From an uncultured Clostridium sp. (GTDB lineage Bacteria; Bacillota; Clostridia; Lachnospirales; Lachnospiraceae): a stretch of 64,000 nt of DNA. The stretch spans positions 54,623-118,622 of the forward strand of contig CAZJAS010000002.1 of NCBI GenBank assembly GCA_964544135.1. The letters run 5' to 3'. The notes under the pieces are model-generated. The model was given only the letters and a program-made list of their open reading frames with translations. It was not told the origin of the DNA and did not search any database. Numbering within the stretch: position 1 is the first letter of the stretch; each line of letters opens with the position of its first letter. Positions 6,179-63,957 of this stretch are shown piece by piece. Made by a program: the position numbers and the translations under genes.

Positions 6179-7189
6179 TTAGAATTTCCCCTCTTTCGCT
6201 GCTTCTTCAATTAAAACAGCAACCGCAACAGTAGCACCAACCATAGGGTTGTTGCCCATACCGATCAGTCCCATCATTTCCACATGAGCCGGGACGGAAG
6301 AAGAGCCGGCAAACTGAGCATCGGAATGCATACGCCCCAATGTATCGGTAAAACCATAAGAAGCCGGACCTGCAGCCATATTATCGGGATGCAAGGTACG
6401 TCCTGTTCCGCCGCCGGAAGCAACGGAGAAATATTTCTTATCCGCTTCAATTCTTTCTTTCTTATAGGTACCTGCAACAGGGTGCTGGAATCTGGTTGGA
6501 TTAGTAGAGTTACCGGTTATGGAAACATCTACGTTTTCTTTCCACATAATGGATACTCCCTCAGGAACACTGTTTGCGCCATAGCAGTTTACCTTAGCAC
6601 GAAGTCCTTCTGAATAGGCAATTCTTTCCACCTCCGTAACAGTATTGGTAGAAGAATCATAAGCGGTTTCTACATAAGTAAATCCGTTAATACGAGAAAT
6701 AATTTTTGCGGCATCCTTGCCTAAGCCGTTTAAGATAACACGCAAATGTTTCTGGCGCACCTTGTTGGCCTTTTCAGCAATACCGATTGCTCCCTCAGCT
6801 GCAGCAAAGGACTCATGTCCTGCCAAAAAGCAGAAGCAGTCTGTTTCTTCTTCTAAGAGCATCTTACCAAGATTACCATGTCCGATACCAACCTTACGGG
6901 TATCCGCTACAGAACCCGGAATACAAAATGCCTGCAAGCCCTTACCGATTGCCTTTGCAGCATCTGCAGCTCTTCTGCAATCCAACTTAATTGCGATAGC
7001 CGCTCCTACTATGTAAGCCCAACATGCATTTTCAAAACAAATAGGCTGGATACTCTTCACTTGTTCATATACATCCAAACCGGCATCTTTAGTAATCTTC
7101 TCTGCCTCTTCAATAGAGGAGATACCATAGCTGTTTAATACAGCATTAATTTTATCAATACGTCTTTCAAATGATTCAAATAAAGCCAT
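6179..7189 (-). CDS. GGGtGRT family protein (function unknown)
   Basis: Eponymous motif SVASGGGTGRTLHPDN present; length about 336 aa typical of the family. Confidence 0.8.
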   Translation of the reverse strand: MALFESFERRIDKINAVLNSYGISSIEEAEKITKDAGLDVYEQVKSIQPICFENACWAYIVGAAIAIKLDCRRAADAAKAIGKGLQAFCIPGSVADTRKVGIGHGNLGKMLLEEETDCFCFLAGHESFAAAEGAIGIAEKANKVRQKHLRVILNGLGKDAAKIISRINGFTYVETAYDSSTNTVTEVERIAYSEGLRAKVNCYGANSVPEGVSIMWKENVDVSITGNSTNPTRFQHPVAGTYKKERIEADKKYFSVASGGGTGRTLHPDNMAAGPASYGFTDTLGRMHSDAQFAGSSSVPAHVEMMGLIGMGNNPMVGATVAVAVLIEEAAKEGKF

Positions 7190-7204: not shown

Positions 7205-7897
7205 TTATTCTTTTCTGGGATCAATTATCTTAACAGCATCATCTACACGGCCATACTGACCACATGATTTTTCATATGCGGTATTCGGATCATCGCCCTT
7301 TTTAATGAAATCTGTCATCTTGCCAAGACTTACGAATTTATATCCGATAATCTGGTCGTCTTTATCAAGAGCAATGCCGGTTACATAGCCTTCTGCCATT
7401 TCCAGATAACGCGGCCCTTTCTTTAAGGTGCCATACATGGTGCCCACCTGGCTTCTTAATCCCTTGCCAAGGTCTTCTAATCCCGCACCTATAGGCAGGC
7501 CGCCCTCGGAGAATGCACTCTGGGTACGTCCATAAACAATCTGTAAAAACAGTTCTCTCATGGCGGTGTTAATTGCATCACATACAAGGTCTGTATTTAA
7601 AGCTTCCATAACAGTAAGACCGGGAAGGATTTCGGCAGCCATTGCTGCAGAATGGGTCATACCGGAACAGCCGATTGTCTCTACCAATGCTTCCTGAATA
7701 ATGCCCTCCTTAACATTTAGGGTCAGCTTACACGCACCCTGTTGAGGAGCACACCAGCCTACGCCATGCGTTAAACCGGAAATATCTTCCACCTTTTTTA
7801 CCTGAACCCAATTAGCTTCTTCAGGAATCGGTGCACTTCCATGATGCACGCCCTGTGCAACTACGCACATTTCTTCAACTTCCTTTGAGTATATCAT
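7205..7897 (-). CDS. NifU/IscU-like iron-sulfur cluster scaffold-related protein
   Basis: IscU-like Cys positions (GWCAPQQGAC, IGCSGMTHSAA); usual partner of GGGtGRT genes in anaerobes. Confidence 0.6.
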   Translation of the reverse strand: MIYSKEVEEMCVVAQGVHHGSAPIPEEANWVQVKKVEDISGLTHGVGWCAPQQGACKLTLNVKEGIIQEALVETIGCSGMTHSAAMAAEILPGLTVMEALNTDLVCDAINTAMRELFLQIVYGRTQSAFSEGGLPIGAGLEDLGKGLRSQVGTMYGTLKKGPRYLEMAEGYVTGIALDKDDQIIGYKFVSLGKMTDFIKKGDDPNTAYEKSCGQYGRVDDAVKIIDPRKE

Positions 7898-16415: not shown

Positions 16416-16555
16416 AAATTTCCCTCCGTAAAGTTAAATCTAAATTTGATGGTAACATAAAAACGGCTTTGTTGCAATACAGCGAACCAAATATCTTTAC
16501 ACCATTCTACTTATTTTTCATAGAATAATAATAAAACAGGAAAGGAATTTTTTCC

Positions 16556-17335
16556 ATGCCGGAATCTCTGCTGCAATTAAAAAACATCTGCTACTCATAT
16601 CACAGTCTGCAGATAGAAACGCCGGCTCTTTTGAATGTATCCTTTCATATTGACCCGGGAGAATTCGTTGCCATTGTAGGTCCCAGCGGTTGTGGCAAGT
16701 CTACACTGCTGTCAATTATAGCAGGTTTGCTTACTCCTGAAGAAGGCACAATTGTTTTTCGCAATCCTGACGGTTCCTTAAACTATCCTCAAATAGGATA
16801 TATGCTTCAAAGAGACCATTTATTTGAATGGCGCACTGTCTATCAAAATGCTATTTTAGGATTGGAAGTGGCTCGTAAACTTACAAAAGAAAACACAGAC
16901 AGAGTACTTGAAATGATGACGGATTATGATTTATACAAATTTAAAGATAAAAAACCTAGCGAACTATCCGGCGGCATGAAGCAGCGGGCGGCTCTTATCA
17001 GAACTCTTGCTCTTAATCCTCAGTTGCTCTTATTGGATGAGCCCTTCAGTGCCCTAGATTACCAGACCAGACTCATGGTCAGTGCTGATATTTGTCGTAT
17101 CATCCGTAAAACGGGGAAAACTGCTATTTTGATTACCCATGATCTATCAGAAGCAATCAGTCTGGCAGATCGGATCATCATATTAAGCCAACGCCCCGCT
17201 ACCGTAAAGTTTGAAGTTCCTATTCACCTTACACTGCCGGATGATTCCTCCTTAGCTTCCAGAAACGCCCCGGAATTCAGTTATTATTTTAATCTATTAT
17301 GGGAGGCGTTGTCTGATGAAAAAAAAGAAATCTAG
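16556..17335 (+). CDS. ABC transporter ATP-binding protein (NitT/TauT-like)
   Basis: Walker A GPSGCGKST, signature LSGGMKQR, Walker B LLLLDEPF. Confidence 0.8.
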   Translation: MPESLLQLKNICYSYHSLQIETPALLNVSFHIDPGEFVAIVGPSGCGKSTLLSIIAGLLTPEEGTIVFRNPDGSLNYPQIGYMLQRDHLFEWRTVYQNAILGLEVARKLTKENTDRVLEMMTDYDLYKFKDKKPSELSGGMKQRAALIRTLALNPQLLLLDEPFSALDYQTRLMVSADICRIIRKTGKTAILITHDLSEAISLADRIIILSQRPATVKFEVPIHLTLPDDSSLASRNAPEFSYYFNLLWEALSDEKKEI

Positions 17336-26328: not shown

Positions 26329-26841
26329 TTACTGCTTAAGCATCTGTTTTATAATTTCCTTAAAGTCTTCCTTCTTGGTCATCTCTCCCTTTACCACCAC
26401 ATAGGTGTTTTCACTTTCAAAAGCAGCCATATAGGTATTGTTATCTCCAATCGCAAATATGACCTGATAATCGTTGATTGCTTCCGTCCATGAAGTATCC
26501 CGGGTAAACTCCAAAGGCAGTATGGACATATGCATTATTTCTATCTGCTCCCCCAGAAAAATTTGGCTTCCCTGATTACCCAAATATATTTTGGGACTTT
26601 CTTGCTTTGTATCCGTCCACTGCCTTGTAAGAGGAAATGCCAATAGGCAAACAAACAGCAGAGCCGCAGCAGCAATTGCATATCCGTAATAAACCTTTCT
26701 TTTCTTTTTTTGAATCAGTCTTTGTTCTTCCATAGACATTTTGTTCTTCGTTTGCAAAATCAAATTATTTGGCGCATGCAAACTGTTTATTTCTGTTTTA
26801 TACTGATCTATTAAGCTCTGCTCCCTATCATTTTCCTTCAT
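26329..26841 (-). CDS. putative anti-sigma factor (single-pass membrane protein)
   Basis: 4-nt ATGA overlap with upstream ECF sigma gene; cytoplasmic N-terminus, one TM (YGYAIAAAALLFVCLLAF), extracytoplasmic C-terminus. Confidence 0.5.
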   Translation of the reverse strand: MKENDREQSLIDQYKTEINSLHAPNNLILQTKNKMSMEEQRLIQKKKRKVYYGYAIAAAALLFVCLLAFPLTRQWTDTKQESPKIYLGNQGSQIFLGEQIEIMHMSILPLEFTRDTSWTEAINDYQVIFAIGDNNTYMAAFESENTYVVVKGEMTKKEDFKEIIKQMLKQ

Positions 26842-27356
26842 AGCAATTCTCCTCCCTTCAGCTTTATTTTTAATATCTCCCTGGCGCGATGCAGCCTGGA
26901 CTTTACCGTGGAGCTTTTCTCTCCAAGAATATTTCCAATCTGTTCCACGCTCATCTCCTCATAATAAAACAAATAAATCACATTTCGATATTTCTCAGGC
27001 AGACTGCCCACCGCAGCTCTTACCGGAGAATCCTCATTTTCTATTCTTTCATAATCTGCTGCAGTCTTTTCATCCGATGTATTTTCTTCTTCCTGTATGT
27101 TAGAAAACACTTTTCTGTTCCAAAAGCTTCCCTGCTGTTTTCTGGCACAATTAATCGTCACCCGTAAAAGCCATGCTTTTAGATGCTCTTGCGATGATAT
27201 TCTGTCCCGGTATCGTACCAAGCGGATGAATACCTCCTGAAATACATCCTGGGCATCTTCGCGGTTGCCCATTTCGTTTACCGCTAACCGATATACCATG
27301 TCAGCATATTTCTCTATAATTTCATCCGTTGTAAGTTTGAGCCTATCACAATTCAT
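26838..27356 (-). CDS. ECF-type RNA polymerase sigma-70 family factor
   Basis: Region 2 (DAQDVFQEVFIRL) and region 4 (YEEMSVEQIGNILGEKSSTVKSRLHRAR) motifs, about 170 aa. Confidence 0.8.
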   Translation of the reverse strand: MNCDRLKLTTDEIIEKYADMVYRLAVNEMGNREDAQDVFQEVFIRLVRYRDRISSQEHLKAWLLRVTINCARKQQGSFWNRKVFSNIQEEENTSDEKTAADYERIENEDSPVRAAVGSLPEKYRNVIYLFYYEEMSVEQIGNILGEKSSTVKSRLHRAREILKIKLKGGELL

Positions 27357-49458: not shown

Positions 49459-50529
49459 ATGAAAAAACGAATTTTACCGGTTATCTGTATTCTAATAACA
49501 GCATTTTTGCTTTCCGGTTGTGGTTCTGCCGACAAGTTTCCAAACGGAGTTGTATATGTTTATAACTGGGGAGAATACATCGATAAGGAAACCATAAATC
49601 TTTTTGAACAAGAAACTGGGATTCAGGTTATATATGATGAATTTGAAACAAACGAAACCATGTATCCTAAGGTAGAGGCCGGTGCGTCAAATTATGATGT
49701 GGTCTGTCCTTCCGATTACATGATTCAGAAAATGATAGACAATGATTTATTAGCAGAGTTAAACTGGGATAACCTTCCCAATGCAAAAGCCAATATCGGT
49801 GCTCAGTATTATGAGCAGGCGAATGCTTTTGATATGGGAAATAAATATTGTGTTCCCTATTGCTGGGGGACCGTAGGTATCCTATATAATACCACGATGG
49901 TAGATGAGCCTGTAAATAGCTGGTCCATTCTGTGGAACGATAAATACAAAGACAGCATACTGATGCAGGAATCCGTTCGTGACCTTTTTATGGTTGCCCT
50001 TAAGGAATTGGGATATTCCATGAACAGCACCGATGAAGCTGAGCTTCAGGAGGCTAAGGATCTCTTAATTGAGCAAAAGCCCCTTGTGCAAGCTTATGTT
50101 ATCGACCAAGTAAGGGATAAGATGATCGGCGGTGAAGCCGCTCTTGGTGTCATCTACTCAGGTGAAGCAATTTACACCCAAAGGGAAAATGAGGATCTGG
50201 AATATGTCATCCCCGAGGAAGGCACTAATGTATGGATTGATGGCTGGGTGATTCCTAAGAATGCATCCAATAAAGAAAATGCCGAGAAATTTATTGATTT
50301 TATGTGCCGCGGGGATATTGCATTACTTAATTTTGAATATATTACTTATTCCACTCCCAATACCGCAGCCAAGGAATTGATTGAGGACGAAAGCATTAAA
50401 AATTCCGAGATAGCCTTTCCTGATTTATCTCAATATAATAATATGGAAACCTTTTCCTATCTCGGGGAAGATGCAGACACTCTGTATAATAATCTCTGGA
50501 AAGAAATCAAATCCTATACATCTTATTAA
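49459..50529 (+). CDS. potD: spermidine/putrescine-binding lipoprotein
   Basis: Lipoprotein signal (LLSGC), PotD-like YNWGEYI motif. Confidence 0.8.
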   Translation: MKKRILPVICILITAFLLSGCGSADKFPNGVVYVYNWGEYIDKETINLFEQETGIQVIYDEFETNETMYPKVEAGASNYDVVCPSDYMIQKMIDNDLLAELNWDNLPNAKANIGAQYYEQANAFDMGNKYCVPYCWGTVGILYNTTMVDEPVNSWSILWNDKYKDSILMQESVRDLFMVALKELGYSMNSTDEAELQEAKDLLIEQKPLVQAYVIDQVRDKMIGGEAALGVIYSGEAIYTQRENEDLEYVIPEEGTNVWIDGWVIPKNASNKENAEKFIDFMCRGDIALLNFEYITYSTPNTAAKELIEDESIKNSEIAFPDLSQYNNMETFSYLGEDADTLYNNLWKEIKSYTSY

Positions 50530-50576
50530 AATTTACGGCATGATTCATTGAGTTAATATATCACTTGATTTATTAC

Positions 50577-50612
50577 AAAAAATCCCGTTGGATCATCATC
50601 CAACGGGGTTTT
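50577..50612. terminator. bidirectional intrinsic terminator
   Basis: cccgttggat-catc-atccaacggg (50584-50607) flanked by A-run and T-run. Confidence 0.75.
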
Positions 50613-50614
50613 TA

Positions 50615-50974
50615 TTATTTTAACACTTCATTTAATGCGTTGATAACCTGCTCCGGTTTATAGGGCTTACATATAAATTCTTTTGCACCCTCTTTTAAAG
50701 ATTCCACTAACATAGAGGATTGTCCCGCTGCAGTCAGCATAATAACTTTTGCATTTTTATCGTAATTCATTATTCCTTTCAGACAACTGATACCATCCTT
50801 TACCGGCATGGTAATATCCATAGTAACAGCATCGGGCTTTGTTTCCTTATAAAGGTTAATTCCTTCTTCCCCGTTTCCTGCTTCTCCCACTATCTCATGA
50901 CCGATGCCTTCTAATATCCCTCTCAGCATACGCCTTGACATTCTTGAATCATCTACAATTAAAATCTTAGCCAT
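50615..50974 (-). CDS. cheY: CheY-like single-domain response regulator
   Basis: ILIVDDS, phospho-acceptor TMDITMP, conserved K in CKPYK; 119 aa. Confidence 0.8.
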   Translation of the reverse strand: MAKILIVDDSRMSRRMLRGILEGIGHEIVGEAGNGEEGINLYKETKPDAVTMDITMPVKDGISCLKGIMNYDKNAKVIMLTAAGQSSMLVESLKEGAKEFICKPYKPEQVINALNEVLK

Positions 50975-50986
50975 TACCTTCTCCTC

Positions 50987-51880
50987 CTATCTTTGTCCCC
51001 AAATTATAAAAAGTGCTTCTTTGCCTCCTATAAAAATCGGAATACTACATATTTCTAAATCTTTAATCTCATAGTCGGTTTCAAAGAATATAGGGGGCAG
51101 TAATTGGGAATTGATTCCGCTCTTGCTTAATGCAGCGGCATAAAGGCCGTTCACACAGTTTAAAAACTCTGCAGCCGCATCCAGAACATCTTCTACTTCA
51201 AGTTCGAATTGATCCTTACAAAACTTGTGACTGAGAATAGAAAGCCCGCCGTCCACTTCTGCTAATCCTGTTACCAGTTCTTTAAATCCCATTATGGGCT
51301 TTGAATAACCCACTGTTTTTTGAAATGCTGATTCTTTTATGGAAATCTCATTTGAAAGAACCGCTTTTCCTATGTAAATCTGCCTATCAACACAGCGAAT
51401 CAATGTTCTTACCAGCACACCTGCAATATCCGCAAAGGCCATTGCTTCACGAGGCAGAAACATCGGTACAATCCGCTCCGGCTGATCGCTTCTTAAATCC
51501 TCCATCTCGGATTTGGTAAAACCATGTTGTTTCTGGAAGCTATCCATAACCTCTTCCAGCTCCTCCATCTCCAAAAGCTCTGCATCCACCAGTGCCTGTG
51601 CAAATGCCAGATAGGCATTACCTTGTTTTTTTAAAAGATTGCTAATCTGTATCTCTGTCAGGTATCCTTTTTCCACAGCAATATCGCCGAACCGTTTGTC
51701 CGTAATCGCTTGAAAACGATTTACCTCATCCGCCTGCTCAACTGTCATCATTCCTTCTATAACAGCAAGCAAACCCATTTTTACCCTGACCTCATTCAGC
51801 CTTGCAATCACCTTATCAAGTTGTTCCCCGGTAATCTTATTAATTTCTACAAGATAGTTTCCCAATATGTGCTCTACCAT
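50987..51880 (-). CDS. CheX/CheC-family phosphatase domain protein with N-terminal MshEN-like (T2SSE_N) repeat domain
   Basis: C-terminal DAAAEFLN...PP fits the CheC/CheX D-x3-E-x2-N-x(about 22)-P motif. N-terminal 24-aa motifs KMGLLAVIEGMMTVEQADEVNRFQ and RFGDIAVEKGYLTEIQISNLLKKQ are separated by 5 aa. Confidence 0.6.
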   Translation of the reverse strand: MVEHILGNYLVEINKITGEQLDKVIARLNEVRVKMGLLAVIEGMMTVEQADEVNRFQAITDKRFGDIAVEKGYLTEIQISNLLKKQGNAYLAFAQALVDAELLEMEELEEVMDSFQKQHGFTKSEMEDLRSDQPERIVPMFLPREAMAFADIAGVLVRTLIRCVDRQIYIGKAVLSNEISIKESAFQKTVGYSKPIMGFKELVTGLAEVDGGLSILSHKFCKDQFELEVEDVLDAAAEFLNCVNGLYAAALSKSGINSQLLPPIFFETDYEIKDLEICSIPIFIGGKEALFIIWGQR

Positions 51881-52007
51881 AGCCTTCTCCCTTCTTCCCT
51901 AACAATAAAGAATTTTTCTTTATTCGTCATTAATTACAATTATATACAATAACAATAAATATTTCCACCATATTGTATAAAATAAATTATTAAGTTGTTA
52001 AATAAGC

Positions 52008-52045
52008 AAAAAAATGCCGAAACAACAGAAGTTGTACCGGCATTT
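52008..52045 (-). terminator. intrinsic terminator downstream of the Cys-rich repeat gene
   Basis: aaatgccg...cggcattt stem with inner acaac/gttgt pairing; T-run follows on the minus strand. Confidence 0.65.
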
Positions 52046-52055
52046 CAAGCAATTT

Positions 52056-52493
52056 TTACTTCTCTTCACACCCACAGGTATCCCCATTTGAATAATTACT
52101 TCTGGTCCATGGAGGAGACATCATATTTCTGTCCCTATCGCAGTCTCTGCCATCACGGTTTCTGTCTCTGTCACAATCCCTGTCACAGTCTCTCTTACAG
52201 TCTCTGTCACAGTCTTTCTTACAGTCTCTATCGCAGTCTCTGTCACAGTCTCTATCGCAGTCTCTGTCACAGTCTCTGTCACAATTTTTATTGCAGTTAT
52301 TATTGCAGCCACAACCACTATTGCCGCCACATACATTACCGCCACAACCACTATTGCGGCTACATACTTTTCTGCAACATTTTTTCTTGCGACAACCTAC
52401 ATTACAACCGCAGCCGCTGTTACAGTTATTGCCTTCGGAAATTCCGCAACCGTTATTGCAACATGCTAGAAAAAGAATAATCCAACAACACAT
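52056..52493 (-). CDS. extremely cysteine-rich tandem-repeat protein (C-D-R-D repeats), no recognised family
   Basis: About 145 aa from ATG 52493 with about 30 Cys. Same strand as flanking genes and followed by a minus-oriented terminator. Track ORF extends to a TTG at 52547 that overlaps the upstream gene. Confidence 0.55.
   Translation of the reverse strand: MCCWIILFLACCNNGCGISEGNNCNSGCGCNVGCRKKKCCRKVCSRNSGCGGNVCGGNSGCGCNNNCNKNCDRDCDRDCDRDCDRDCDRDCKKDCDRDCKRDCDRDCDRDRNRDGRDCDRDRNMMSPPWTRSNYSNGDTCGCEEK
52137..52283. repeat. 12-nt in-frame tandem repeat array (consensus gtcacagtctct; encodes CDRD on the minus strand)
   Basis: Eight consecutive 12-nt units plus a 6-nt partial unit over 52182-52283, preceded by one further copy at 52137-52148 and degenerate copies over 52149-52181. 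Confidence 0.9.
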
Positions 52494-52518
52494 ATTACAT
52501 TCCCATTTCTGAATTGAT

Positions 52519-53082
52519 TTACTGTATCTTATTCTCTTCCCCTCCAAAATGTGACAATAGGAACTCTTTTTTTATAAATTTAAATGTCTGCTTTTCACCC
52601 AGATTTGAAAGCATGGTCAGAAGCATCTCAAGATTATTTCTTGTAAATTCATGTATGGGGGCCGGGTCCTTCCCTGACCTAAAATATTGCAGCGGTGCAT
52701 CATCTGAATAGTCTTCGCCCAAATATACTTTACAGGCTGCAATTCTATCCATAACCATTTCCGCAATATAACGCTTTGGCATTGGTGCAGGTGCCATACC
52801 GCCCTGTCCGCCTTTTAAAGAATAGTCTATCCAATATTCGTAATGATGCTTATTACGCCCCTTATGATGGAGCCAAGCGGTGGAATATCCATTTGATTCC
52901 CGCTCCGCATTATTGGGGCTTCTGTTTCCCTGATAATATTTAGCACCGACTATAAATTCACTGGGACTATATTTTGAAAGATCATGAAATAGCCCCTGCC
53001 AATATAAACCTACCGCAAAGCATCCTTTTAATACCAGCCATTTATGGTAGGTAATTGTTTTAAAGTGTTTCCACGCTTTCAT
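52519..53082 (-). CDS. conserved hypothetical protein, DUF5662-like (family assignment from memory)
   Basis: FHDLSKYSP and WLHHKGRNKHHYEYW motifs; overlaps the GlgX-like gene by 23 nt. Confidence 0.5.
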   Translation of the reverse strand: MKAWKHFKTITYHKWLVLKGCFAVGLYWQGLFHDLSKYSPSEFIVGAKYYQGNRSPNNAERESNGYSTAWLHHKGRNKHHYEYWIDYSLKGGQGGMAPAPMPKRYIAEMVMDRIAACKVYLGEDYSDDAPLQYFRSGKDPAPIHEFTRNNLEMLLTMLSNLGEKQTFKFIKKEFLLSHFGGEENKIQ

Positions 53083-54970
53083 GTTTTACTGCACTTCCCC
53101 TTCTCTTCCGACCACCTTTTTGCTTGATTTCCTTACTTTTAAATAGACAGATACACCTTTCGGGCATCCTTATTTTAAGCTGTTCTTCTACATCCCTCAG
53201 TTGTAATGTGTCGTTTTCTGAAGTCATGCATAATTCCCAACTCATCCCTTTTGGCAAATTGGGCATTGCAAAATCATGCTCTTCCCAATGCATATTATAT
53301 ACTACATAAAAGAAATCATCAGGCGTTTTTTTATCTTTATAGGCATATTTCCCACAATACATGATTCCAAGCTGTCTGCTGTAACCGGATGTATTTGGTT
53401 TCCAAGGAACCTCTCCGTGATAGGATAAATCAGGATAGCCACATGCCCCATAATCCATCATCCTAAGCTCTTTCTCCTGCCTGAGCACCGGATGCTCCTT
53501 CCTCAGAAGTATTAATTTTTGGGTAAAGTCAAATATTTCTTTTTTAGTATCCAAGTCTTTCCAATTTAACCAAGTAGTGATATTATCCTGGCAATAGGGA
53601 TTATTATTTCCCTCCTGTGAATTCCCAAACTCATCCCCCATAAACAATAGAGGAGTCGCCTGTGACAGAAAAAGTATCATCAGCGCATTCTTAATCTGCT
53701 TGATCCTAAGTGCCATAACCTTTTTTTTACGGGAACGGCCTTCCTGTCCGCAGTTCCAGCTGGCATTATATTCATTACCGTCCCGATTATCTTCTCCGTT
53801 TTTATCATTATGCTTTTGATCGTAAGAAACCAAATCCATGAGAGTAAAACCATCATAATTAGTCAAATAATTTATCTTGCCGCAACCCATGGGATTATAC
53901 CGCAAATGATACATGGCAGACGGTAATGTACCTTCTTCCCCTTTTAAAAAACGCCTCATGGCATACCGATAATCATCCTGATATTCCGCAATATAACGCA
54001 TGCCTGCAGCTCTTCCTTTTTCGGAATCTCTCATCAGCTCTGTTTTATTTTCGGAAAAATTGTAATACCAGAGCTTGGTTTTTGCAAGTGCGGGATCTTC
54101 GGCTAACACACCTGTATTAATATTTTCTCCCTTTAAATGAAAGCCATCCACATGGTAATTGATCACCCAGTATCGCAATATTTCGGGAATTTCTCTTTCC
54201 GGTACTTTCTTTGTAAAATAAAATTGTAAAACAACTTCTATCTTATTTTTATGCAATTCTTTTACCATATACTTAAACTCTGATAATGCATCCTTCGTAT
54301 AAGCATAACTGTTTTTGGGACTGTAATAATATCCTCCTGTATAGCCCCAATAATTAATTTTATTTTCTACAGGAATTGATGCATCCTCAAAAGGATTTTC
54401 AACCTTTTTTTTCTTTTCTATTTCGGGAAATTCATAGATTGGCTGCAACTCCAATGTTGTAATTCCTAACTCCTTTAAATAGGGGATTTTTTCTACAAGC
54501 CCACTAAAGGTTCCCCTTGCCTTTACCTTAGAGGATGCATGTTTTGTAAAACCTCTCACATGCAGACAATAGCATATACTTTGATCATACGGGATTCGCG
54601 GATTAATATCCTCCTTCCATTCACTGTCTCCTTTGGGAAAAAGTGCCGGTCTGATATTACCTGCAAAAGAGGGAATTTCTGCATAACGATATCCGCCAAG
54701 AAATGCCTTTCCCCTCACGTCCGTTATGAGTCTGTCTTCCTCATAAAAACAATAAGCCTTATCTTCCCGAGAAATACCGCTTATGTACATGCATTTAATA
54801 TTTCCAATGGTATATTCCTCAGCAAATGGAATTCTCTTCCATTCCTTCATCGTATCTTTAAAAAACAGAACAACCCCACAATCCGTTCTTGTACTCACAT
54901 AGGCAAAGTTTACACCTTCTTTATCTATATGTATCCCTAAAGGATATGGCATCCCTTTTGTGATATTCAT
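53060..54970 (-). CDS. GlgX/isoamylase-like GH13 protein with non-canonical catalytic residues (possible pseudoenzyme)
   Basis: Collinear with GlgX (YPLGI..GVNFA, HVRGFT, LRYWV..HVDGF, DGFTLMDLVSYDQKHN), but region II reads VDGFHLKGE instead of VDGFRFDLA. Confidence 0.7.
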   Translation of the reverse strand: MNITKGMPYPLGIHIDKEGVNFAYVSTRTDCGVVLFFKDTMKEWKRIPFAEEYTIGNIKCMYISGISREDKAYCFYEEDRLITDVRGKAFLGGYRYAEIPSFAGNIRPALFPKGDSEWKEDINPRIPYDQSICYCLHVRGFTKHASSKVKARGTFSGLVEKIPYLKELGITTLELQPIYEFPEIEKKKKVENPFEDASIPVENKINYWGYTGGYYYSPKNSYAYTKDALSEFKYMVKELHKNKIEVVLQFYFTKKVPEREIPEILRYWVINYHVDGFHLKGENINTGVLAEDPALAKTKLWYYNFSENKTELMRDSEKGRAAGMRYIAEYQDDYRYAMRRFLKGEEGTLPSAMYHLRYNPMGCGKINYLTNYDGFTLMDLVSYDQKHNDKNGEDNRDGNEYNASWNCGQEGRSRKKKVMALRIKQIKNALMILFLSQATPLLFMGDEFGNSQEGNNNPYCQDNITTWLNWKDLDTKKEIFDFTQKLILLRKEHPVLRQEKELRMMDYGACGYPDLSYHGEVPWKPNTSGYSRQLGIMYCGKYAYKDKKTPDDFFYVVYNMHWEEHDFAMPNLPKGMSWELCMTSENDTLQLRDVEEQLKIRMPERCICLFKSKEIKQKGGRKRRGSAVKHESVETL

Positions 54971-62754: not shown

Positions 62755-62861
62755 GGTCATATGTAACTAACCGATAGTTTCATCGTTTGGGGTAACGGAC
62801 CGGAAACCACCACATATAATACTATAAAAATAATCTACAAATTTTATGAAAGGAAACATTT

Positions 62862-63032: not shown

Positions 63033-63310
63033 ACGGAAAACTTTCGGAAAAGGATCGCATGCTGAAGGATATCAGTATCATTGATTTTACCCTTGTGGAT
63101 TTAATTGAATATTTAGACACCCACCCATGTGATAAAAAGGCTATGGAATTTTTTAACCACTATGCCCATATTAAAAACCAAATGATGCAGGATTTTGCTG
63201 CACGCTATTATCCGTTAACTGCGGAACTTTCTGATGATACGAGAGAATGGAGCTGGGTGCTTTCACCCATGCCGTGGGAATATTCTGCTAATGAAGGAGG
63301 TTGTCGATAA
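63029..63310 (+). CDS. cotJB: spore coat protein CotJB
   Basis: IIDFTLVDLIEYLDTHPCDKKAMEFFNHY... typical CotJB; TAATG overlap with cotJC. Confidence 0.8.
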   Translation: MNGKLSEKDRMLKDISIIDFTLVDLIEYLDTHPCDKKAMEFFNHYAHIKNQMMQDFAARYYPLTAELSDDTREWSWVLSPMPWEYSANEGGCR

Positions 63311-63957
63311 TGTGGAAATATGAAAAAAGATTACAATTTCCTGTTAATATAAAGGAACCCAATGCTAAGCTGGCACAAAGTATTATGTCTCAATACGGCG
63401 GACCTGACGGAGAAATGGGCGCAAGTATGCGCTATTTATCCCAGCGTTATGCCACACCCTACAGAGAAGTAGCAGGACTGCTTACCGATATCGGTACAGA
63501 AGAACTGGCCCATCTTGAAATGGTTGCCACCATTGTACACCAACTCACCAGAAATCTTTCTATGGAAGAAATTGAAAAAAGCGGCTTCGCACCCTACTAT
63601 ACCGACCATACCGTAGGCATTTGGCCCCAGGCTGCAGGCGGCATACCTTTTAATGCTTGCGAATTCCAAAGTAAGGGCGATATCATAACGGATTTATTTG
63701 AAGATATGGCTGCGGAACAAAAAGCCCGCTCGACTTATGACAATATTCTGCGTCTGGTTAGAGATGTGCCGGATGTTTGTGAGCCTATTAAATTCTTACG
63801 TGCCAGAGAGATTGTTCATTTCCAGCGTTTCGGTGAAGCACTCCGCATTACACAGGATAAATTGGATTCTAAAAACTTCTATGCCTTTAACCCCGGATTT
63901 GATACCGTTCAGGGTGGTATGGACTGTAATAAGAAATGTAACTGTGGAAACAGGTAA
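63310..63957 (+). CDS. cotJC: spore coat protein CotJC (manganese catalase family)
   Basis: MWKYEKRLQFPV...GGPDGEMGASMRYLSQRY...EELAHLEMV di-metal ligand pattern. Confidence 0.85.
   Translation: MWKYEKRLQFPVNIKEPNAKLAQSIMSQYGGPDGEMGASMRYLSQRYATPYREVAGLLTDIGTEELAHLEMVATIVHQLTRNLSMEEIEKSGFAPYYTDHTVGIWPQAAGGIPFNACEFQSKGDIITDLFEDMAAEQKARSTYDNILRLVRDVPDVCEPIKFLRAREIVHFQRFGEALRITQDKLDSKNFYAFNPGFDTVQGGMDCNKKCNCGNR

Follow-up and report, generated by a model that had tools for sequence, protein, structure and literature searches.

The 64,000-nucleotide (nt) stretch of contig CAZJAS010000002.1 from an uncultured Clostridium sp. of the Lachnospiraceae (the window, by which we mean the whole stretch that was analysed) carries on its minus strand, at positions 52056-52493, an open reading frame (ORF) for a small Cys-rich protein. 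This ORF, which belongs to a family that is restricted to the Lachnospiraceae, is a real gene, because the frame, the termini, the position of the ribosome-binding site (RBS), the promoter and the terminator are conserved in 18 lineages. An earlier reading of the same DNA (the original prediction) had likewise taken the ORF for a gene and not for a repeat artefact. The chances seem about even that the product is a late mother-cell spore-surface protein, which would be a functional analogue, and not a homologue, of CdeM from Clostridioides difficile or CotG from Bacillus. This reading is based on a sigma-K-type promoter in an organism with pdaA and cotJABC, on the small, domain-less and Cys-rich product, and on the conserved ends that are separated by a repeat spacer. 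The family, with its architecture and its restriction to the Lachnospiraceae, is contained in neither Pfam nor NCBIfam. As a kind, the lineage-specific, repeat-rich and Cys-rich candidate spore-surface protein is already known.

A gene family restricted to the Lachnospiraceae

Numbers such as L003 or L018 designate related loci or lineages carrying the Cys-rich gene, and 18 lineages were examined. A search of 5.8 billion proteins yielded 14 relatives, and an exhaustive profile search of 1.84 billion representatives gave 35 matches, about 20 of which were judged by sequence to be true members. With a broader profile derived from 26 members, 88 small proteins of 66-156 amino acids (aa) without a Pfam domain were retrieved. 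All named homologues are annotated as "hypothetical protein" and belong to the Lachnospiraceae, one of them to Acetatifactor. Moreover, the C-terminal pattern occurs in 7 of the 185,579 species of a species-representative genome set, all of which are uncultured Lachnospiraceae. JGI metagenome contigs were scanned for relatives and none were found, and there are no paralogues of the Cys-rich protein within the window. As the original prediction had stated, the protein belongs to no recognisable family: the comparison of the window protein and other members with Pfam and NCBIfam gave nothing beyond RD/SD low-complexity noise, and a PDB sequence search returned only RD-repeat noise (a Mediator subunit and protein Red).

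The ORF with both termini in frame is intact in the 15 loci that were gathered first, in which it encodes proteins of 92-182 aa. The later, more divergent loci encode the full protein as well, and the gene is intact in all 18 lineages, whose GC contents range from 34 to 54%. In the C-terminal 21 codons, 298, 219 and 601 differences fall on the first, second and third codon position, respectively. Thus, most changes affect the third position, with synonymous variation at conserved residues, and this pattern indicates that selection acts on the protein.

A collection of 15 billion protein sequences does not contain the exact window protein, whichever start codon is used, but does contain, from NCBI and Logan assemblies, the CheX-like and CheY proteins encoded next to it. 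The DUF5662 product of the preceding gene, as called here, is also absent from this collection, possibly because a different start was called. In the species of the window, the Cys-rich gene appears to have been skipped by gene callers. The absence of the protein from a collection that contains its neighbours, and antisense frames that remain open for 125-140 codons in the window, could be taken to mean that the ORF is a chance frame in a stop-free repeat or that the real product lies on the opposite strand (51995-52480, plus strand). However, stop codons are absent from the repeats, so that antisense frames frequently stay open in part, and only the sense frame is open from end to end in every lineage. 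The antisense frames break in L010-L012, and the ORF at 51995-52480 was rejected for this reason. Conservation along the sense and not the opposite strand was one of the checks that the original prediction had proposed. Since, furthermore, the terminal peptides are conserved with synonymous changes, about 88 homologues were called independently, and promoter, RBS and terminator all have the orientation of a minus-strand gene, an artefact is hardly conceivable and can be regarded as effectively refuted.

Conserved ends and a variable middle

The 145-aa product contains 30 Cys (20.7%), 23 Asp, 18 Asn, 18 Arg and 16 Gly residues, begins with MCCWIILFLACC and ends with SPPWTRSNYSNGDTCGCEEK. The original prediction had counted about 145 residues and about 30 Cys and had described a hydrophobic N-terminus followed by a block rich in Gly, Asn and Cys, all of which agrees with the present translation. 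The locus is composed of the following elements:

52056..52493, minus strand: coding sequence of the 145-aa Cys-rich modular protein, from ORF translation (ATG at 52493; stop codon 52056-52058 included)
52458..52493, minus strand: N-terminal hydrophobic segment MCCWIILFLACC, codons 1-12; family consensus MNCxW-LLLLFCC
52284..52457, minus strand: Gly/Asn/Cys-rich low-complexity block with CGC motifs, codons 13-70; variable in length and sequence among orthologues
52164..52283, minus strand: tandem array of a 12-nt unit, called by Tandem Repeats Finder and coding for ten C-[DK]-[RK]-D tetrapeptides (aa 71-110)
52125..52163, minus strand: degenerate repeat tail RNRDGRDCDRDRN, aa 111-123 (unit-by-unit translation)
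52059..52124, minus strand: conserved C-terminal module MMSPPWTRSNYSNGDTCGCEEK, codons 124-145; most conserved part of the family, with synonymous codon variation
52500..52504, minus strand: weak Shine-Dalgarno sequence GGGAA, 7-11 nt before the ATG; purine-rich GGA/GAG at the same position in all lineages
52008..52046, minus strand: Rho-independent terminator, a GC-rich hairpin with seven consecutive U residues 3' of it (-21.1 kcal/mol, z = -5.9)
52525..52552, minus strand: putative sigma-K-type promoter ACATTTTGGAGGGGAAGAGAATAAGATA with a -35 'AC', a 17-nt spacer and a -10 'AATAAGATA'; overlaps the last DUF5662 codons

The RBS, whose position is conserved across the lineages, is strong (AAGGAG) in L019 and L020. 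None of 200 shuffled sequences folds as well as the terminator, which had been predicted in the same orientation, and a hairpin lies directly 3' of the stop codon in most of the related loci shown. Within the coding sequence, Tandem Repeats Finder detected an 18-nt repeat (3.3 copies, 52301-52357) in the Gly/Asn/Cys-rich block and the array of period 12 with 10.0 copies, 80% matches and a score of 163. The C-[DK]-[RK]-D tetrapeptide occurs 11 times, in ten consecutive units (aa 71-110) and once at aa 118-121. The ten units claimed by the original prediction are therefore present, but the array ends at 52164; the stretch down to 52137 that had been assigned to it includes the degenerate units RNRD and GRDC. 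Unit-by-unit translation revealed that the 24 nt of units 2-3 recur without any change in units 4-5, a sign of recent duplication.

Alignments of the family revealed a common plan, in which an N-terminal segment of the form M-N/C-C-x-W/I-(I/L)LLLL-F/G-CC-GG is followed by a low-complexity middle region, first rich in Cys, Gly and Asn and then in Asp, Arg, Asn and Glu, and by a C-terminus of the form PPPW...[DE][TS]CGCE(EK). The C-terminal motif of this three-module plan can be written as PPPW-x-RSNYSNGDTCGCEEK. The N-terminal segment is conserved in 66 of 76 members. Among the 76 members, the Cys content varies between 8.6 and 20.7% (median 13.4%), and the window copy is the most Cys-rich. The members have a median of four CxC motifs each. 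One CGC is conserved at the very end of the protein, and a second often occurs near the N-terminal block. The number of Cys residues ranges from 8 to 30 across orthologues, with only 8-9 in L010 and L011, and Cys is nearly absent from the repeat region of some of them, which have DRDRDR runs (L009) or Gly/Asn-rich runs (L010-L012) instead. The CDRD array and the Cys content of one-fifth, which the original prediction had treated as the defining features without singling out the termini, are thus a lineage-specific expansion of a hypervariable spacer and do not define the protein. Presumably, the conserved N-terminal helix and the C-terminal PPPW...CGCEEK are the functional parts.

Indeed, orthologues differ chiefly by the in-frame gain or loss of repeat units, and the D/R(/C) repeats vary in both sequence and length. 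Together with the range of 92-182 aa given above, this supports the length variation that the in-frame repeats had led the original prediction to expect. The clearest case is the pair L014 (5659-6108) and L022 (3001-3330), whose flanks are 100% identical over 2,500 nt on each side and which are separated by one clean in-frame difference of 120 nt. The L014 protein has 149 aa when counted from the family-typical MCNW start (151 aa for the ORF as called) and that of L022 has 109 aa. L023, with flanks that are 90-93% identical to those of L014 and L022, encodes 101 aa. The difference between L014 and L022 is either a strain polymorphism or the collapse of a repeat in short-read assembly.

AlphaFold2 predictions had a mean predicted local distance difference test (pLDDT) score of 47.8 with 15 aligned sequences and 51.3 with 76, and this similarity indicates that the low confidence is not due to alignment depth. 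The only confident element is a helix of residues 3-12/13 (pLDDT 73-80), and the Gly/Asn/Cys block remains below 50. The net charge is +1 for the window copy and -4 for the family median, as Asp is balanced by Arg. On the predicted model, the protein is therefore best described as a short hydrophobic helix with a chain attached to it for which disorder is predicted. About one-third of this chain is charged, its overall charge is close to neutral, and it ends in a conserved tail of 20 residues. Beginning near residue 3, the hydrophobic run extends over a median of nine residues (range 6-12), and no Lys or Arg precedes it in 70 of 75 proteins; neither its length nor its charge is sufficient for a classical signal peptide or a membrane span. 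A Sec signal peptide was therefore rejected, and the charged N-region and adequate hydrophobic length of a Sec-type secreted or membrane-spanning protein were not found. A lipoprotein was rejected as well, because position -1 is occupied by a bulky residue in most members (LLFC, LLLC or LFCC) and because Lys or Arg are missing before the run. The window copy reads FLAC-C at the would-be lipobox, and the combination of a lipobox [LVI][ASTVI][GAS]C with a charged N-region was not found.

A sigma-K-type promoter element

The promoter in the window would start transcription near 52519-52520 and give a 5' untranslated region of about 25 nt. Defined as AC-N16/17-[C/A]ATAnnnTA and scored from -75 to -21 relative to the start codon, the element is present in the aligned upstream regions of 17 of the 18 lineages, where it ends 27-36 nt before the ATG. 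In the same interval, just 2 of the 160 control genes from these loci, each coding for 150 aa or more, have the element, and its genome-wide rate is about 0.016 per 120 nt. Canonical CATAnnnTA with an AC 16 nt upstream is found in L018 and L019, and L020 has CATAATCTA without the AC. In L003, L005, L014, L015, L017, L025 and L027, the element is kept in truly intergenic DNA; since it is retained where DUF5662 ends earlier, it does not merely reflect coding conservation. A generic sigma-70 scan of the minus strand upstream of the Cys-rich gene found nothing. None of 14 upstream regions of the GlgX-like gene, which precedes DUF5662, contains a sigma-K-type element, and most of them have a conserved sigma-A extended -10 sequence, TGnTATAAT.

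The window also contains sporulation genes, in line with the original prediction that the organism has pdaA and cotJABC: pdaA was identified with TIGR02884 (302 bits against a cut-off of 298), along with the genes for CotJA, CotJB and CotJC. Upstream of cotJA (62862) a strict element, AC-16-CATATAATA, is located at a distance of 40 nt (62795-62821, plus strand) and provides a positive control from within this genome.

In C. difficile, the sigma-K consensus consists of a -35 AC and a -10 like CATATAAT, and the sigma-K regulon comprises cdeC (CD1067), cdeM (CD1581) and cotJ-like operons (PMC3789822). According to our reading of Table S7 of that study, about 10 of the 25 mapped sigma-K promoters have AATA and not CATA, including those of CD1133, cotE, cotA, CD1891 and CD3613 (PMC3789822). 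As AATA is common among these mapped promoters, the "A" variant of the majority of the lineages is normal for sigma-K. In its form, the promoter of CD1133 (CTCACA...GAATATACTATAAATA; PMC3789822) is almost identical to the element of the Cys-rich gene. In general, the CD1133, cotE and cotA promoters share with it the -35 AC (often as xCACA or AACA), the spacer of 16-17 nt, the [C/A]ATAnnnTA and an A-rich start about 5 nt downstream. However, the starts of the C. difficile promoters have been mapped, whereas the element described here is assigned by sequence alone.

Other sigma factors fit less well. Sigma-G or sigma-F, with GAATA as the -35, were rejected because CAGAAAT, 17-18 nt downstream, does not fit CATnnTA and because the start would fall on the RBS. 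Sigma-H was rejected since there is no conserved AGGA 11-12 nt upstream. For sigma-A, only a weak GTCACA-18-TAAGAT can be read; this assignment was rejected because it leaves the invariant A before and after TAnnnT unexplained and because real sigma-A promoters here have TGnTATAAT.

A candidate spore-surface protein

The original prediction had listed a spore coat or exosporium component among the candidate roles, and the conserved sigma-K-type promoter gives this idea support that is real but indirect. If it is correct, the promoter would be read by the late mother-cell factor sigma-K, or possibly by sigma-E, and the product would be made late in sporulation in the mother cell and deposited in the outer layers of the spore (coat or exosporium). 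The two conserved termini would mediate anchoring or contacts with partners, the repeat region would act as a variable spacer, and the many Cys residues would form intermolecular disulfide cross-links once the spore has left the reducing cytoplasm.

Two groups of spore proteins offer the closest comparisons. CdeM, which has 161 aa, 8.7% Cys, no domains and repeats rich in Asn, Gly and Cys, is required for exosporium morphogenesis, and both CdeC and CdeM have been reported to be absent from the Lachnospiraceae (PMC6101409). Like CdeM, the window protein is small, Cys-rich, domain-less and lineage-restricted and has short repeats, and its gene has the same type of promoter; thus, the CdeM-like combination of high Cys, short repeats and no known domain is found here. 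However, compared by sequence alone, it differs from CdeM and CdeC by the hydrophobic N-terminal helix, the PPPW...CGCEEK C-terminus and the Asp/Arg spacer. The profile searches of 1.84 and 5.8 billion sequences returned only small proteins, the named ones all from the Lachnospiraceae, and gave no sign of homology to CdeM or CdeC, which is an indirect result obtained without pairwise alignment. The termini of CotG interact, and its central repeats serve as the spacer that lies between them (PMC9765600). CotG and CotG-like proteins of Bacillus also share with the present family the conserved termini, central repeats that arise by elongation of a mini-unit, predicted disorder and members that differ in the sequence and number of the repeats. 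In contrast to CotG, whose repeats are strongly positive and phosphorylated by CotH, the product of the gene next to cotG, the repeats described here are charge-balanced and Cys-rich. Neither positive repeats nor a neighbouring cotH were found, and there is no homology between the two families.

A third group is the YjcZ family (TIGR01732), which is associated with sporulation by name and which we take to consist of small Gly-rich proteins with one hydrophobic segment. It resembles the window protein in small size, low complexity and one short hydrophobic segment, but it differs in module order and in the conserved C-terminal motif. TIGR01732 gave no match at E <= 1 with the window protein or with any of 26 members, and a literature search on YjcZ returned nothing useful.

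Several points weigh against a role at the spore surface. Disulfide cross-linking is pure inference. The assignment of the sigma factor depends on a short AT-rich motif, for which the weak sigma-A reading GTCACA-18-TAAGAT is possible, and a certain distinction between sigma-E and sigma-K cannot be made. As there is no terminator after DUF5662, transcripts from the sigma-A promoter of the GlgX-like operon could also extend into the gene in vegetative cells. Moreover, a strongly hydrophobic N-terminus is atypical of known coat proteins and could insert into a membrane instead. Finally, members occur in only one bacterial family and, for the most part, in one conserved gene block; therefore, the 18 lineages are not independent of each other.

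Genomic neighbourhood and alternative explanations

In close relatives, the gene is part of a syntenic block consisting of gltX, a uvrD-like gene, a DUF1292 gene (opposite strand), the GlgX-like gene, the DUF5662 gene, the Cys-rich gene, the CheX-like gene, cheY and potABCD (opposite strand). Profile matches confirmed the two upstream neighbours named by the original prediction, the DUF5662 gene (52519-53082, minus strand; PF18907, E = 3.5e-37) and the gene for a GlgX-like protein of the GH13 family (53060-54970, minus strand), which, at 327 bits against a GlgX equivalog cut-off of 640.9, is a divergent GH13 enzyme. In divergent lineages the downstream genes differ; for instance, a pseudouridine synthase gene is present in L015, a lactonase gene in L017 and L027, and GtrA and other genes in L019. 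The order GlgX-like, DUF5662, Cys-rich gene is kept in 16 of 18 lineages, but in L018 the Cys-rich gene directly follows the GlgX-like gene without DUF5662, and in L020 and L021 it stands alone between oppositely oriented genes. The synteny that was to be tested according to the original prediction is therefore real, and the association with the GlgX-like/DUF5662 pair is frequent but not obligatory.

Given this order, which persists even where the downstream genes have changed, the product could be a vegetative, membrane-associated partner of the GlgX-like and DUF5662 proteins. Its helix would anchor in the membrane and its disordered tail would aid, for example, the handling of glycogen (granulose) or an envelope-linked redox process. 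The position directly after the GlgX-like gene in L018 would fit this explanation, as would the gap of only 23 nt behind DUF5662 in the window, the finding that no terminator lies between the two genes, even in the longer spacers of related loci, and the strong sigma-A promoter of the operon. Moreover, the N-terminal helix is the sole confident structural element. However, a conserved promoter and RBS of its own would be unnecessary if the gene were purely co-transcribed, and the gene occurs alone in L020 and L021 and without DUF5662 in L018. Furthermore, the whole gltX-uvrD-DUF1292-glgX block is syntenic, so that the adjacency may simply be inherited, and the hydrophobic run, with a median of 9 residues (6-12), is short for a membrane span and lacks flanking positive charges. 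Overall, we consider a membrane-associated partner rather improbable.

It is less probable still that the protein is a metal-thiolate or metallothionein-like protein in which the CxC motifs and the Asp-rich repeats serve as ligands of Zn, Cu, Fe or Ca and which buffers metal or redox stress or loads the spore with metal. Such a function would be compatible with a spore role and with sporulation-specific expression. The Cys content, the CxC motifs and the conserved terminal CGC speak for it, and the Asp-rich repeats could bind divalent cations. However, the number and spacing of the Cys residues are not conserved apart from the CxC motifs, which also argues against the defined Fe-S or metal site considered by the original prediction. 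In L010 and L011 the protein has only a few Cys residues, and the middle region of some members consists of pure DR repeats. No match to metallothionein or another metal-binding family was obtained, AlphaFold2 predicted no compact Cys cluster, and the Asp charges are balanced by Arg.

The third role that had been proposed, a Cys-rich peptide precursor, is highly improbable. A ribosomally synthesised and post-translationally modified peptide (for example of the SCIFF/ranthipeptide type), or a secreted Cys-rich peptide, with the conserved 20 C-terminal residues as its core would agree with the small size, the Cys content and the conservation of the C-terminal segment and the N-terminus. However, none of the 18 contexts has an adjacent gene for a maturase (radical-SAM or other), a leader peptidase or a dedicated exporter. 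A cotH-like gene is likewise missing, none being located within 6 kb on each side. The only radical-SAM gene seen is located several genes away in L019; it has the UPF0004-Radical_SAM-TRAM domain set and presumably encodes a MiaB-like tRNA-modifying enzyme. Moreover, the hydrophobic N-terminus without a Sec-type charged region is unlike typical leaders, and it would be unusual for leader and core to be separated by a long hypervariable spacer.

Other features of the locus and the window

The end of the GlgX-like gene overlaps the start of the DUF5662 gene by 23 nt. The DUF5662 protein carries an HD-like FHDLSK...HHKGRNKHHYEYW motif; the PDB contains no sequence relative of it, and a literature search on DUF5662 found no papers. 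The CheX-like gene (50987-51880, minus strand) encodes an MshE-type c-di-GMP-binding motif (46 bits with NF053729, whose cut-off is 38) and is directly followed by a gene for a single-domain CheY-like receiver (50615-50974, minus strand). The pair is kept in most syntenic loci and suggests a c-di-GMP-responsive CheY phosphatase module. Between the convergent genes potD (plus strand) and cheY (minus strand), a hairpin of 16 perfectly paired bp that is flanked by a T-run on either side (50578-50613) looks like a bidirectional terminator. Rfam searches at the locus gave only two sub-threshold small RNA matches (rli38 and ncr1175; 50495-50616), which are probably due to this hairpin.

Elsewhere in the window, CotJC (63301-63957) ends in a Cys-rich tail, GGMDCNKKCNCGNR. 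A strict sigma-K-type element (16501-16527, plus strand) lies 28 nt before an ABC-transporter ATPase gene (16556-17335), which may be regulated by sporulation, or the element may occur there by chance. A relaxed motif of the same type is located 23 nt upstream of a NifU-like ORF (7205-7897), which adjoins the gene for a GGGtGRT-family protein (6179-7189, minus strand; PF14057, E = 6e-187). Furthermore, the gene for a sigma factor of the extracytoplasmic function (ECF) type (26838-27356, minus strand) is overlapped by the following ORF for 170 aa without a family (26329-26841, minus strand), which could encode the anti-sigma factor of the adjoining ECF sigma factor.

Implications for spores of the Lachnospiraceae

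Among the spore-forming commensals of the mammalian gut, the Lachnospiraceae are one of the most abundant groups, and the spore is believed to be the form in which they pass between hosts. A literature search found no study of spore-surface proteins of the Lachnospiraceae. A conserved family with a sigma-K-type promoter thus provides a concrete candidate for an outer-layer spore component. The conserved tail gives a candidate tryptic marker peptide, SNYSNGDTCGCEEK (or SNYANGDTCGCEEK), for existing metaproteomes, and the in-frame repeats may serve as a marker for strain typing. The gene also illustrates how annotation can miss small repeat-rich genes. A more far-reaching possibility, which we regard as tentative and rather doubtful, is that the family represents a hitherto unrecognised class of spore-envelope scaffolds specific to the Lachnospiraceae. 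In such a scaffold, the helix would tether the Asp-Arg and Cys-rich disordered chain to the outer forespore membrane or to a hydrophobic coat layer, the PPPW...CGCEEK tail would recruit a partner or metal, and the rapid in-frame gain and loss of repeats would tune the thickness, the permeability or the host interaction of the spore surface between gut strains. If this were true, the scaffold class would be a functional replacement for the CdeC, CdeM and CotG systems, which these bacteria lack.

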